From: Candidatus Heteroscillospira sp.
GTDB taxonomy: Bacteria > Bacillota > Clostridia > Oscillospirales > Oscillospiraceae
Direction of reading: 5' to 3'
NCBI GenBank assembly: GCA_050943935.1
Contig: JBMNQC010000004.1
Location: 107,759 to 171,758 of the forward strand
Length of the DNA: 64,000 nucleotides
A program made the position numbers and the translations under genes. Every line of letters starts with the position of its first letter. The first letter of the stretch is position 1. Below the pieces are notes generated by a model, which did not search any database, was not told where the DNA came from, and saw nothing but the letters and a program-made list of their open reading frames with translations. Shown piece by piece: positions 29,395-37,502 of this stretch.

Positions 29395-29888
29395 CAGGCT
29401 GTTGAACTTTCCGCGCAGGGCGGCTCCGAATTCGCTGAAAGCGTATTCGGAGCGTGCAGGGGCGCGCATTGCGCGCCCAGCTTTTACTTATTCGCCCGGG
29501 TGCGGCGGTGAAATCGATTCGTACTGCGGGGTCGGGTTCTGAAACCCATTTCTTTAAAGAAACGGGTTTCAAACTTCCCAAAGAACTTGCCTAGATCGAA
29601 TACTCTTTTGGGCCTCGCCGACGCGCACAACGCGCTCGTGCGTCGGTTACTGCAAGCCCTGGCCTGCGTCTTAGTGCAGTACTGTCAGGTGAGCTTTACG
29701 CTGAACTCTACTGCCCAATTCCATCGACTCAGGCGCGATTTGGTGGCACTACCACTTCGCCATTTGAATAAGGTGAGCTTTAGCACACTATAGTTCCCTC
29801 CTCGCGGCACAGCCGCTGCGGTCGGCGGCTAAAAACGTGCCACCGGCACGTTTTTTTAACGCCCCCGGTTATTCACTATTCACTAAAA
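29395..29888. repeat. intergenic mosaic repeat cluster 3 (5' two-thirds of the ~450-bp element + unit 3 remnant)
   Basis: Palindrome GGGGCGCGCATTGCGCGCCC at 29459-29478. Hairpin GAAACCCATTTCTTTAAAGAAACGGGTTTC at 29541-29570. 29571-29785 aligns with 43372-43585. Confidence 0.9.
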
Positions 29889-29895
29889 ACCACCC

Positions 29896-29903
29896 CCTGT
29901 TGG
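29896..29903 (+). repeat. left junction core CCTGTTGG (attL side)
   Basis: Identical octamer at 37480-37487. The left half-hairpin AAAAACCACCCCC precedes it. Confidence 0.7.
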
Positions 29904-30025
29904 CAGTCGTCCATAAAACAGGCAAATGAACAACACATCGTTTATGGGTGACTGTCATACGGGGTTAGGTGAATGAAATATGCTGGACATGGTTGAAATC
30001 AACCGTGTCCAGCATATTTTTTCGC

Positions 30026-30862
30026 TTATTTGTGTTTCCCTTTTCCGTGGGTCATGCTTGCTTTTCCCCGCTGGTTCATCGGATTTTTCAAGTGTTTGGA
30101 CAGCTTCAAAATCTCAATCAAGGTCACAAACTGCTCCATTGAGATGGCGTCATAGTCCACACCGTACTGCCGAAGAAAAATCCTTGCCCGCTTTTCATCG
30201 TCGCTGCCCTCATAGTTCATGGCCTCTTGCAGTTGCTTTTGGGCTTCAAGGGCAACGGATGGGGCGTCTGCCGTGGTAGTATCGTCCCGGTGAGCCTCCC
30301 GAATGTCACGGAGTATGGTCGTCAAATCCTCAGAGATCACATGACCGAAGTATTCATCCTCCCGCACCTGCGCCAGTTCCAAAGTCCGCAGATGCAGATC
30401 GTCAGCGTTTCCCTCCTGCTTCAACAGCACCATTTGACGGACAGATTCAAGAACAACGTTCATGTCGTTGATCCTCATATCCGCAATCCGATCCACGAAA
30501 ATCTCACCGTCCAGCATCATGCGCTGAAAATCCTTGTGGCATATAATTTCTGACAGCAGCCGCTTATTGAACTTTCCTTCTTTCAAAACATCAATCGCAT
30601 CATCACTCAAATGCAGAGCGTTCAACTCTGCGTTTGGGTGATTTTTTTGTTCCGTCATGCCCAGCAGATAATCCGTGGATACACTGTAGAACTTCGCCAG
30701 CGTCACGATAGCAAAGAGACTGATGTCCTTGAAATCGTCGTTTTCATATTTGCCCAGAGCCGACTTGGAAAGCCCGGTCTGCTCCGCAAGCTGTTCCAGC
30801 GTCAGTCTGCGCTCCACCCGCAAATCCTTCAATTTTTCCTGTATGGTTAAGGTCGTATTCAT
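30026..30862 (-). CDS. XRE-family HTH regulator with long C-terminal domain
   Basis: 278 aa. N-terminal HTH LTLEQLAEQTGLSKSALGKYEND. Confidence 0.8.
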   Translation of the reverse strand: MNTTLTIQEKLKDLRVERRLTLEQLAEQTGLSKSALGKYENDDFKDISLFAIVTLAKFYSVSTDYLLGMTEQKNHPNAELNALHLSDDAIDVLKEGKFNKRLLSEIICHKDFQRMMLDGEIFVDRIADMRINDMNVVLESVRQMVLLKQEGNADDLHLRTLELAQVREDEYFGHVISEDLTTILRDIREAHRDDTTTADAPSVALEAQKQLQEAMNYEGSDDEKRARIFLRQYGVDYDAISMEQFVTLIEILKLSKHLKNPMNQRGKASMTHGKGKHK

Positions 30863-30987
30863 ACCGTGTCCCCCTTGCGCCCGTTGGTATTGTTCGTTAT
30901 TTCCATTATATCACAGCTTGTCCATAAGCGTGGAAATATTCGCTTTTGGATGCCAATTTCCGACCTTTTGGATATACGGGAACGGTC

Positions 30988-31016
30988 ATATATTTTCGCT
31001 AAAATGTAATTGTCAA
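30988..31016 (-). promoter_or_regulatory. putative promoter of the XRE gene
   Basis: Minus strand: TTGACA (complement of 31011-31016), 17-nt spacer, ATATAT (complement of 30988-30993). Flanked by the 9/10 inverted repeat ACGGTCATAT / ACATGACCGT. Confidence 0.45.
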
Positions 31017-31526
31017 CAGACATTGCAGCTTGAAAACCACATGACCGTCCGAATGAGATATGCCGACTGGTGAAGCACCGCCAAGACCTTACCTCTGGTC
31101 ACCGTGACCAGAGGTGACTTCGGGACAAATTGTCCCAAAGCTAAGAGCGTGCCAAGGCCGGGGATACGCCGGGGTGAGATTCCCGGGCAGGAACGACGTT
31201 CGGGAAGAACGGCACTTAAAAATGCAACTCAAAATCAAGCCATGTGAAATCAGCGAACATTCCGCAATCTGAGTATTGCTAACCACACCAAAGAGCGTTG
31301 CGCCGAACAGCGCACACGGTACGGCATCCGGCGTGGATGTTCGCCGTTTCGCATGACTTCACACAAAACTGTGAAACCGAAAGACCGCCCTACTGGACAG
31401 GGCATCATGGGCGGCAATCTGAGCGGAAATTCACTTTCAGAAAAACAACGCTCCACAGCGAACAGAGCTTGCCGTTGGGCATATCCGGTTCACTGCGGAG
31501 ACTACGAAAAAAGGATGATTTTCAGT

Positions 31527-31757
31527 ATGAAGAATGACGAGAATTACAGAAACGAAATCAAAGCCTACATCGTCCGGGCTGGTATGACCATGAGCGAGGT
31601 GGTAGACATTCTGGCTGACGAATACGGTTGGAGCAGCAGCGTCCCCAACCTGTCCGGAAAACTCAAGCGTGGTTCTCTCCGCTACGGCGAGGCCGTGGAG
31701 CTGGCCGATGTGCTGGGGTATGACCTCGTTTGGGTCAAACGCAGGGAGGGCAGATAA
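31527..31757 (+). CDS. small putative DNA-binding (HTH-like) protein
   Basis: 76 aa ([29 protein letters not shown]...), preceded by AAAAAGGA. Lies immediately upstream of the small recombinase. Confidence 0.55.
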
Positions 31758-35178: not shown

Positions 35179-35472
35179 TTGCCAGTGAAGCTGTCTTTAT
35201 CCCTTAGTGTAATTATACTAAGGGCGCACTTCTATCTGGCCCGCCGGGAATTGAAACCCTATCTGGAGGAGGGCGGCAAGCTGCCTGTGGCCCAATGGGA
35301 GGCAGAGCGTACCCGGCTGAAACAGGAGTATGCGGCGGAGAGCGAGGCATACAAGCCCATTCTTGCCGATTTGAAAAGCTTGCGGCAAATCCAGTACGCC
35401 GTCGATAGCGCCCGCCATGAGCAGGAGCGCAGCGAACAGGCGCAGAACCGAAAATACGAACAGGAACGATGA
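35179..35472 (+). pseudogene. probable C-terminal remnant of a mobilisation/relaxase gene
   Basis: The coding-like part starts just after the hairpin CCCTTAGTGTAATTATACTAAGGG. A Glu/Arg/Gln-rich coiled tail sits upstream of the TnpW-like gene, as in clostridial Tn4451-like elements. Confidence 0.35.
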
Positions 35473-35487
35473 AAGGAGAAACCGACT

Positions 35488-35703
35488 ATGGAACCAACGA
35501 AAGCCAATGTTACGGGTTGCTACCGTGACGCAGAGGGACACCTCTGCGTCCGAAACCTGTCCGCCTACTGGCTACCTGATCTGACGCTACAACGGGAGAT
35601 CGGCGGGACGCTGTATATCGTGGATGGCAGCTATGAGGGGACGGAACCCCTCGACCGAAAAATCTGCCGTATCATGGCCCGGAACATGGAGGATTCCTTA
35701 TGA
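35488..35703 (+). CDS. TnpW-like small transposon protein
   Basis: 71 aa, located immediately upstream of the large serine recombinase. The sequence type (…[28 protein letters not shown]) recalls transposon-encoded TnpW. Confidence 0.5.
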
Positions 35704-35791
35704 TGCAAGCTGTACTTCCCCCCCGGCGTATGATATAATAGAAGCACCTAATCCTGTACAGACAGTTGCCCCATTGAAGGAGGAAACAGAA

Positions 35792-37424
35792 ATGTTAAGG
35801 GCAACTGATAAAATCACCGCATTGTATTGCAGACTTTCCCAAGAGGACGATTTGGAGGGCGAGAGCAACTCCATCGGCAATCAGCGCATGATGCTGGAAC
35901 GAGTCGCACGGGAAAACCGCTTTTTCAACCTTCGTTTTTTCACCGATGACGGCTATTCTGGAACCAGCTTTGAACGCCCCGGCTTTCAGGCTATGCTGGA
36001 CGAGATTGAGGCTGACCGGGTGGGGGTGGTCATTGTCAAAGACCTCATCCGTTTCGCAAGAAACTCGGCTATGGCGGGAATGTATATCAACTTCACCTTT
36101 GCCGAGCATGGGGTGCGGTTTATCGCCATCAATGACGGTTATGACACCATCGGCCCCAACAGCATCAACAACGATTTTGCGGGCATCAAGAACTGGTTCA
36201 ACGAGTTTTATGCACGGGATACCAGCCGCAAAATCCGGGCGGTCAACAAGTCCAAGGGAGAGCATGGCGAGTGTCTGACCACCAATGTCCCCTATGGCTA
36301 TGTGAAAGACCCGGAGAACAAGAAAAGCTGGCTGGTGGACGAAGAAGCGGCGGCAGTAGTCAAACGGATCTTCAACCTCTGTATGGAGGGCCGAGGCCCC
36401 ATGCAGATTGCGAAGCTGCTGCAAGAAGAAAAGGTGCTGACACCTACCGCCTACAAGCGCAGAAAGGGCCGCAAATCGCCCAACAAAGAGAGCGCAGACC
36501 CGTACCAATGGGGAACCAATACCGTTGTCCGCATCTTGGAACGGCAGGAATACACCGGCTGCACCGTCAATTTCAAGACCTATACCAACTCCATCTGGGA
36601 CAAGAAAACACGCCAGAACGCACCCGAAAACCAGTTCGTGTTTTACGGTACGCACCCGGCAATCGTGGAACAGGAAGTGTTTGACAAGGTACAGCAGATC
36701 CGTCAGCAGCGGCACAGACGGGCGAAAACGGGCAAAAGCAATCCGTTCTCCGGGCTGGTGTTCTGCCATGACTGCAAGGCGAAAATGCACTACTGCACCA
36801 CCAGCTATTTTGAGAAGCGGCAAGACCACTTTGTTTGTTCCAACTACCGGAGCAACACGGGAACCTGTTCGGCACACTTCATCCGGGCGGTGGTTCTGGA
36901 AGAAATGGTATGGGCGCATATCAGCGCAGTAATTTACTATGTCAGCCGTTATGAAGATCATTTCCGCAGATGGATGGAGCGCAGACTGCAAATGCAGAGT
37001 GCGGACACGCTGAAACTGCTGAAAGCGCAGCTGGCACAGGCCGAAAAGCGCATTTCTGAGATTGACCGTCTCTACATCAAGATTTACGAGGACAACGCCA
37101 GCGGCCAGCTTGCGGACGAGCGTTTCGCTATGATGAGCAGAAACTACGATGCCGAGCAAGCCGAGCTGAAAGCGAAAACGGTTAGTTTGCAGGAAGAAAT
37201 CGAAGTATAGGAACGACAGATTGATGACCTTGAATCGTTTATCCAGAGGGTACGAAACGGACTTGACTGAACTCACGGCCTACGCTCTGCATGAGCTGGT
37301 AAAGGCGGTTTATGTGGAGGCCCCGGACAAGTCAAGCGGGCACAGGGTACAGAGAATCCATATCCGCTATGACCTTGTGGGCTATATCCCGCTGGATGAA
37401 CTAAAAAAACAGGAAACGGCATGA
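35792..37424 (+). pseudogene. large serine recombinase (TnpX/TndX-like), C-terminus disrupted
   Basis: [13 protein letters not shown] catalytic Ser block, recombinase domain, Cys-rich zinc ribbon ([11 protein letters not shown]...CSNY...C) and a coiled coil. In-frame TAG at 37208-37210, then a frame change near 37245-37270. The DUF4368-like tail LTELTAYALHELVKAVYVEAPDKSSG continues in another frame to 37424. Confidence 0.8.
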
Positions 37425-37479
37425 CCCAAAGGCCATGCCATTCCCTGTTAAATACGGATTACTGTTTTATTAGCCGCCG

Positions 37480-37487
37480 CCTGTTGG
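37480..37487 (+). repeat. right junction core CCTGTTGG (attR side)
   Basis: Identical to 29896-29903. Followed by GGGGGTGGTTTTTT, which complements AAAAACCACCCCC at 29886-29898. Confidence 0.7.
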
Positions 37488-37502
37488 GGGTGGTTTTTTC
37501 AT

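Follow-up and report, generated by a model that had tools for sequence, protein, structure and literature searches.

What is the low-GC island that lies directly behind ruvX in Candidatus Heteroscillospira sp., and where has the terminator of this gene gone? The stretch analysed comprises 64,000 nucleotides of contig JBMNQC010000004.1 and is referred to as the window; all coordinates count from its first letter. A first-pass annotation had proposed that an island of about 7.6 kb was inserted into an intrinsic-terminator hairpin downstream of ruvX. Based on junction sequences, folding and comparison with related loci, the island is very probably a degenerate integrative mobilisable element (IME) of the Tn4451/Tn6104 type, whose TnpX-like large serine recombinase would have inserted an attP-bearing circle into the loop of the ruvX terminator. 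After insertion the island copy most likely decayed, by truncation of its relaxase and lesions in its integrase, and is now a fixed fossil. Such a fossil mobilisable element accounts for both the low-GC island and the 'missing' ruvX terminator. The features that carry this interpretation are the following.

29885 to 29903, no strand: attL, host side, made up of the A-run, the left half stem and the core (junction sequence, folding).
29904 to 29922, no strand: the element's left arm, serving as one of two attP half-sites, cagtcgtcc and then ATAAAACAG(G); inverted partner of the right arm.
35792 to 37424, plus strand: large serine recombinase pseudogene with Resolvase, Recombinase, Zn_ribbon_recom and DUF4368 domains.
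37459 to 37479, no strand: the element's right arm, serving as the second attP half-site, (A)CTGTTTTAT and then tagccgccg.
37480 to 37499, no strand: attR, host side, made up of the core CCTGTTGG (37480-37487), the right half stem GGGGGTGG and the T-run (junction sequence, folding).
37503 to 37910, minus strand: ruvX (PF03652), the host gene with the split terminator and last gene of a tetrahydrofolate (THF) riboswitch-folT-ruvX unit (Pfam).

The junctions, the rebuilt terminator and the recombinase

As claimed in the first-pass annotation, the direct-repeat core CCTGTTGG is present at both ends of the island, at 29896-29903 and 37480-37487. The left junction reads AAAAA (29885-29889), CCACCCCC (29890-29897), CCTGTTGG (29896-29903) and then CAGTCG; its sequence had been given correctly and its start one base off. 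The right junction is GCCGCCTGTTGGGGGTGGTTTTTT at 37476-37499. Joining the outer flanks, with one core copy and everything between the copies deleted, yields CACTAAAAACCACCCCCTGTTGGGGGTGGTTTTTTC, which has the architecture AAAAA-CCACCCCC-TGTT-GGGGGTGG-TTTTTT. This rebuilt site folds into a hairpin with a 13-bp stem (A/T runs counted) and a 4-nt loop at -23.1 kcal/mol, and the ruvX-sense strand folds equally well. The fold is better than that of 200 out of 200 dinucleotide-preserving shuffles (z=-5.1 and -5.5). With its G/C-rich stem, short loop, A-run on the left and T-run on the right, the rebuilt site has the features of an intrinsic terminator and is predicted to act in both directions. It begins 3 nt beyond the ruvX stop codon (37503-37505), which upholds the claim that the deletion restores a terminator hairpin behind this gene.

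The 7,584 bp between the core copies have a GC content of 49.7% compared with 58.1% for the remainder of the window, in agreement with the low-GC interior described before. The pair of island ends is the longest inverted repeat of the region, and motifs of the element family lie at a fixed distance of 12 nt from the core on both sides; the junction pair is thus not a chance match. No tRNA or tmRNA was found near the junctions.

When the element's right end is joined to its left end, a 46-bp imperfect palindrome of the form CTGTTTTAT-12 nt-GT-12 nt-ATAAAACAG is obtained, which spelled out reads CTGTTTTAT-tagccgccgcct-GT-tggcagtcgtcc-ATAAAACAG. Its symmetry centre, GT, is also the centre of the TGTT loop in the rebuilt hairpin. 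The ends thus have the form of a serine-integrase att site, namely an imperfect dyad of ~46 bp around 2 bp, without a fixed-length duplication, at whose centre the putative cleavage position lies. From the 12/12 spacing, the candidate crossover dinucleotide GT is located at 29899-29900 on the left and at 37483-37484 on the right. As the junctions are identical over 8 bp, the crossover point cannot be fixed from sequence alone, and it may be the neighbouring TT, the usual dinucleotide of the family, with 13/11-nt spacing.

Large serine recombinases bind each double-stranded att site as a dimer, bring two sites into synapsis, cut all four strands with a 2-nt stagger, exchange them by subunit rotation and religate. 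In the case of the island, the ~46-bp palindromic attP of a circular element would recombine with the double-stranded DNA of a bidirectional terminator located between the pduL-side genes and ruvX. The G/C-rich inverted repeat of this terminator, with its A and T flanks, would supply two half-sites resembling those of attP. A 2-bp staggered exchange in the hairpin loop, at GT by symmetric spacing or at the adjacent TT, would then split the stem into attL (29885-29903) and attR (37480-37499). We infer that the recombinase recognises double-stranded DNA and not a cruciform, and the same holds for the recombination chemistry and the exact crossover position. According to this scheme the unoccupied site would read ...CACTAAAAACCACCCCCTGTTGGGGGTGGTTTTTTCATTCA... 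and the circle junction ...CTGTTTTATTAGCCGCCGCCTGTTGGCAGTCGTCCATAAAACAG...

The recombinase gene ends 56 nt from the right junction. Its product combines a resolvase catalytic domain (PF00239, E=3.9e-23), in which an 11-residue segment aligns with ALYERLSRDDD of TnpX, the serine nucleophile motif, with a recombinase domain (PF07508, E=4.5e-23) and a zinc beta-ribbon (PF13408, E=1.1e-14) located C-terminal to it. The closest solved relative of the catalytic domain is TnpX of Tn4451 (2mhc, E=1.8e-34); SPbeta SprA/YokA and TP901-1 match at 2.7e-9 or weaker. In a tblastn search of the integrase against plasmids, no match exceeded 48% identity.

To describe the decay of the gene we used the intact integrase P0001 as reference (98% protein and 95.6% DNA identity), which is encoded on locus L001, a sequence cut before its junction. 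Relative to P0001, the window copy carries a nonsense change (CAG>TAG at 37208-37210, codon 473) and a 5-nt deletion at ~37255-37257 that leaves the DUF4368 (PF14287) tail out of frame; this domain is detected with E=3.6e-13 on the out-of-frame tail (37221-37424) and with E=1.2e-20 in P0001. In addition, the substitutions S86I and D121G affect positions invariant across nine homologues. The window copy is therefore not an intact, translatable integrase gene. The homology with L001 begins abruptly at 35229, indicating that the relaxase is truncated as well; instead of a functional mobilisation module, i.e. a relaxase with an origin of transfer (oriT), the window contains a stump of ~82 codons alone. 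With integrase and relaxase both defective, the element is no longer autonomous. The 'recombinase and mobilisation remnants' reported earlier are thus an apt description of the relaxase stump, while the large serine recombinase is near full length, though a pseudogene.

Related elements and their targets

Relatives were collected by a one-genome-per-species scan (GTDB), which returned 80 loci with integrases 54-74% identical to that of the island. The right-end set comprises 74 loci, the window and L002 included; both ends were identified in fifteen elements, and 25 targets were rebuilt, ten of them from copies of a single element, named here after its integrase P0053. L002 is the closest intact relative with long flanks. 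Its integrase is 81% identical and its backbone is that of the island, and its target, AAAAAGTCCCCCCGGCA-AA-AGCCGGGGGACTTT, is a different terminator, behind a Bmp gene. Site-specific insertion into a terminator, as originally suggested, is well supported by the TnpX-like gene, by palindromic ends centred on the loop, and by the same arrangement in L002, in 13 further loci and in the ten P0053 copies.

The 74 right ends have a common layout, in which the motif CT[GTA]T[CT]TTA[CT] is followed by a G/C-rich arm of 12 nt and a dinucleotide, and these in turn by host DNA with a G/C-rich segment and a T-run. Among the 73 readable dinucleotides, TT occurs 45 times, AA 16 times and GA once. A flank that is both G/C-rich and T-rich is found at 57.5% of the right ends compared with 3.7% of 20,000 random positions. 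These data also bear on the question of which recombinase was at work, since the island encodes a second, small serine recombinase (~31761-32370). This protein could have integrated the island, with the large recombinase as a mere passenger; its open reading frame (ORF) has no internal stop and is kept in several sister elements. We consider this very unlikely, as the spacing between the end motif and the large recombinase gene is constant over the 74 loci, among which the P0053 IME has no resolvase gene called. Moreover, sites of the attP/attB type are read by recombinase and zinc-ribbon domains, which resolvase-only proteins lack. Finally, TnpX alone suffices for Tn4451 transposition (Brouwer 2011, PMC3158075; Guedon 2017; both citing Lyras 2004).

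The rebuilt targets have the consensus AAAAA-nn-CCC-nnn-CC-n-TT-n6-GGG-nn-TTTTTTT. Of the 25, 21 have a folding energy of -18 kcal/mol or lower (median -22.9 kcal/mol) and the crossover within the loop; just 4.7% of 600 chimeras of mismatched left and right flanks reach this energy. Thus, the two halves at each site are mutually complementary, beyond merely being C-rich and G-rich. The identity between attL and attR in the fifteen elements ranges from 2 to 8 nt (median 3) and therefore does not represent a fixed duplication. This variation argues against a classical transposon, in which the half hairpins would be the terminal inverted repeats of the element itself and CCTGTTGG an 8-bp target-site duplication made by a DDE transposase, with no host terminator involved. 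The local sequence would allow such an origin, given the perfect 13-nt inverted repeat of AAAAACCACCCCC and GGGGGTGGTTTTT beside the 8-bp direct repeat. Nevertheless, it is largely refuted and highly improbable: the island has no DDE transposase domain, and the outer half stems of sister elements vary by locus, whereas the inner 21-22-bp arms are conserved, and the conserved inverted repeat is located 12 nt inside the crossover. Furthermore, related species have a terminator at the equivalent ruvX position, and the intact paralogue hairpin at 20153-20186 of the window stands there without an element.

The assembly collection lists the P0053 integrase (572 aa, 71% identical to that of the window) in 1,996 of its index blocks. 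Ten different genomic contexts (L089-L098, ~3173-11776 in each) hold one and the same 8,603-bp element with unchanged arms. In all ten, TT falls within the loop of the hairpin obtained by rebuilding the target; the insertion is just 3' of a gene in nine, and in six it is between convergent genes. The element carries a D12-class DNA methyltransferase, a DUF6996/DUF6997/DUF7226 protein, DUF3847 and a MobA/MobL relaxase, and it is apparently a very abundant and recently active gut element. The PF03389 MobA_MobL relaxase module is present in L002 as well as in L089-L098. Near-identical right arms also stand beside four different host flanks in L017, L018, L022 and L079. In the window's own lineage there is one copy with a readable junction, and multi-site use is seen in the relatives only. 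As a separate observation, the right flank of L092 (11800-12571) adjoins IS200/IS605-type remnants, comprising split Y1 transposase pieces and a Cas12f/TnpB-like C-terminal fragment.

Several observations weigh against insertion of a serine-recombinase element into the terminator. The hairpin is weak in four of the 25 rebuilt targets, so that the specificity is a preference and no absolute rule. The central GT of the island is unique among the 74 right ends. The integrase copy of the window is defective, and its past activity is putative. A RuvX with 100% identity occurs solely on the window's own contig, the next best being 87% identical. In addition, scans for the rebuilt-attB 24-mer in the metagenome collection and, in the metagenome and viral collections, for a 21-mer conserved at the left end gave 0 matches each.

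In the collections the species is represented by this contig alone, which explains why no exact conspecific empty site was obtained. Exact-protein look-ups of RuvX and PduL returned nothing, and that of FolT returned only a 904-nt contig; no excised-circle junction was found in the collections scanned. In the nearest species (RuvX 87% and 79% identical), folC-folT-ruvX is kept and ruvX is followed by a terminator hairpin of different sequence, with no island. These loci are the orthologous empty state and not the exact empty site. A similar picture emerged for L095, a sibling insertion downstream of rpsR: among S18 homologues, related strains all have a terminator after rpsR, the sequences differ, and no exact empty site was seen. 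When the rebuilt attBs were searched across all retrieved loci, only paralogous intact hairpins were found, in L055 and L008. In L055 (2990-3270) the target hairpin follows a tRNA gene, and a near-identical intact copy of the tRNA 3' end plus hairpin is located 190 nt upstream of attL, so that this locus has paralogous terminators in tandem. Nowhere in the searches did the island itself turn up in a non-hairpin context, which would have contradicted the original proposal.

Element-borne terminators, gene content and neighbourhood

The remaining features of the island and its surroundings are listed in order of position.

20153 to 20186, no strand: intact paralogous bidirectional terminator hairpin, AAAAACCGCCCCCTG-TTTT-CAGGGGGCGGTTTTT, -28 kcal/mol (sequence, folding).
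29976 to 30019, plus strand: element-borne hairpin with a 20-bp stem and a T-run, ~65 nt inside the left end, inward-facing (terminator scan).
30026 to 30862, minus strand: XRE/Cro-C1-type helix-turn-helix (HTH) regulator, 278 aa, part of the conserved left module (domain and homology searches).
31353 to 31757, plus strand: small ORF with weak DUF6471/Clr5-like matches below the Pfam cut-off, kept in sister elements.
31761 to 32370, plus strand: small serine recombinase with a resolvase domain only, part of the conserved left module (domain search).
32411 to 35228, plus strand: lineage-specific cargo, 46.9% GC, with ORFs for a zinc-ribbon protein (within 32262-33338), a 57-aa product (33399-33572) and a zinc-ribbon/tetratricopeptide-repeat (TPR) protein (33586-34839).
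35229 to 35472, plus strand: relaxase remnant of the MobA/MobL type, reduced to the final ~82 codons of its C-terminal part (start of the L001 homology).
35488 to 35703, plus strand: TnpW-like small protein, 80% identical to its L002 counterpart.
37408 to 37449, minus strand: element-borne hairpin (19-bp stem, T-run on this strand) that extends over the stop codon of the integrase, inward-facing (terminator scan).

The two element-borne hairpins suggest how transcription is handled at the occupied site. The left hairpin, whose sequence is common to L002, L010 and L008, would stop host transcription entering from the left, and the right one would terminate ruvX read-through ~95 nt past the ruvX stop codon. 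The folT-ruvX transcript is thus predicted to end now at an element-borne terminator. Of 16 elements, 9 have a strong predicted inward-facing terminator no more than 160 nt from the left end; at the right end, a predicted inward-facing terminator is present within 110 nt in 59 of 74 loci, compared with 3% of random windows. The hybrid junctions themselves retain a hairpin and a U-run in the outward direction (attR plus strand -15.6 kcal/mol, attL minus strand -14.3 kcal/mol), and the attR hybrid was also detected by the terminator scan. Inward host transcripts fold at -6.8 and -6.7 kcal/mol, like shuffled sequence, and are without a U-run. As judged from these predicted folds, the element design seems to replace the broken host terminator, to insulate the element and to keep host damage limited.

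Elements in other genomes share the left module (29906-32410) and the right module (35229-37478), while the middle is unique: no homologue of the cargo (32411-35228) is present in any of the related loci compared, and PADLOC identified no defence system in it, with just generic HTH matches and one weak TPR match. The small resolvase ORF has no in-frame internal stop and no canonical start codon after the ribosome-binding site, so that its start is uncertain. The match of the L002 TnpW-like protein to PF14202 (E=2.7e-4) falls short of the Pfam cut-off. No TnpV/Xis-like gene was identified in the island. A perfect 18-nt inverted repeat, TCCAGCATCATGCGCTGA / TCAGCGCATGATGCTGGA, links the XRE gene (30510-30527) and the integrase gene (35881-35898) over 5.3 kb; both copies encode QRMML, the chance expectation in the region is ~5e-4, and the integrase copy is also present in L001.

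Given this gene content, derivation from a prophage or phage satellite with a serine integrase is highly improbable. Phages commonly encode serine integrases, and the XRE repressor is weakly similar to phage repressors (RstR-like), but genes for capsid, tail, terminase or replication are all missing from the island, its intact relatives have a mobilisation module made up of a MobA/MobL relaxase and DUF3847, and megablast found no match in plasmids or in 50,697 phage records.

On the host side, a THF riboswitch (RF01831, 71 bits, 38532-38650, minus strand) is located upstream of a folT-like energy-coupling factor (ECF) S-component gene (37936-38451) and ruvX. Since the riboswitch heads the folT-ruvX unit, the split hairpin was the terminator of a riboswitch-controlled unit. 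The intact paralogous hairpin at 20153-20186 is indeed present as first described; it has the upstream TTCACTAAAAACC in common with the split ruvX hairpin and shows what an unoccupied site looks like in the present genome. A second terminator-like hairpin, AAAAACGTGCC-ACC-GGCACGTTTTTTT, is found at 29831-29857, ~30 nt upstream of the split one, from which we predict that the intergenic region originally had two tandem bidirectional terminators.

The window also contains mosaic intergenic repeat clusters (~18617-18770, 19771-20190, 29428-29880, 40145-40735, 43232-43736 and 47118-47905). They are assembled from common modules of 40-240 nt with 60-98% identity, many of them with hairpins of the CCTCCCC-TGTTA-GGGGAGG type. 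One such cluster (29428-29880) forms the left flank of the island, and the 20153 hairpin closes another. Arrival of the island by homologous recombination between repeats ending in such hairpins is nevertheless most improbable: the left flank belongs to a family with at least six copies in the window and the 20153 paralogue has the same upstream sequence, but the repeat lies on the left side only, the right flank being ruvX itself, and the junctions are exactly 12 nt from the integrase-binding motifs on both sides, as in the family.

Possible terminator targeting and known systems

Taken alone, the island is unremarkable, a decayed new copy of an already known type of element. The family data raise a broader possibility, namely that a widespread DUF4368 recombinase clade of gut Clostridia uses bidirectional terminators as a class of attB, with two half-sites, exchange in the loop and compensating terminators. 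We put this forward tentatively, at slightly less than an even chance, from comparison of sequences. If it is true, the 'multi-targeting' of the DUF4368 clade would be terminator homing, a safe-harbour strategy undescribed for serine integrases in the literature searched. A terminator-loop rule would account for the many sites and yet rare gene disruption by DUF4368 integrases, would aid automatic delimitation of such elements, and would offer a short, abundant and defined class of natural landing sites for integrases under genome-engineering development. No report linking serine recombinases to terminator targets was found within the limited searchable literature, which does not by itself prove novelty, and family-level terminator targeting may already have been noticed elsewhere.

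By its domain content, the island falls in with the Tn4451/Tn6104-type mobilisable transposons and with the DUF4368 'multi-targeting' clade. Among known elements, Tn4451 and the island are alike in having a terminal large serine recombinase with a related catalytic domain (2mhc), a resolvase-like, TnpY-like recombinase, a TnpW-like protein and a Mob relaxase. Each spans a few kb, with very short terminal direct repeats and low or multiple target specificity. The targets differ, in that Tn4451 has low specificity for sites resembling its circle joint whereas the island family is found in terminator hairpins. The crossover of Tn4451 and Tn5397 takes place at GA, for which reviews state just a 2-bp site. 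This GA is not matched here, as the island has GT or TT and the family mostly TT or AA. The relaxases are also of different types, MobV in Tn4451 (Guedon 2017) and MobA/MobL in the island.

Tn6104 and related putative mobilisable transposons of C. difficile R20291 (PMC3158075) share with the island a TnpX-related recombinase, a mobA/mobL gene and variable cargo, and they have 2-bp direct repeats. Excision of the Tn6104 circle has been demonstrated (Brouwer et al. 2011, PMC3158075). Unlike the island, which lies in a terminator, Tn6104 sits inside another conjugative transposon, and no terminator target has been reported for it. IME_Rho_tet (Sidibe et al. 2026, PMC12904643) likewise comes from gut Clostridia; this IME encodes a relaxase and, at its 3' end, a serine recombinase, is bounded by 21-bp terminal inverted repeats and ends 81-90 bp past the recombinase stop codon (PMC12904643). 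Its integration site is a MAFF2-encoding ORF within larger elements and its cargo tet(W) or tet(32), in contrast to the intergenic terminator location of the island and its lack of a resistance gene.

The integrases of the DUF4368 'multi-targeting' clade (Durrant et al. 2022, PMC10083194; Cp36, Enc9 and Pc01) resemble the island family in their DUF4368 domain, many attB sites and TT core. Their targets were described as relaxed AT-rich or 'more complex' motifs, and the words terminator, hairpin and palindrome are absent from the text of that study (Durrant et al. 2022, PMC10083194); in the present family the motif resolves into an A-run, a C-rich stem, a TT loop, a G-rich stem and a T-run.

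The island family would join the elements that home to terminators or palindromes. Class C group II introns, insertion sequences (IS) of the IS110/IS1111 type that target repetitive extragenic palindromes (REP), and Tn7 at the glmS terminator all do so with unrelated machineries, and insertion at or after a terminator or palindrome spares genes, which is the logic of a safe harbour. These systems rely on retrohoming ribozymes, on DEDD or RNA-guided transposases and on TnsD recognition, respectively, whereas the island would have entered its terminator by conservative serine-recombinase exchange in the loop.

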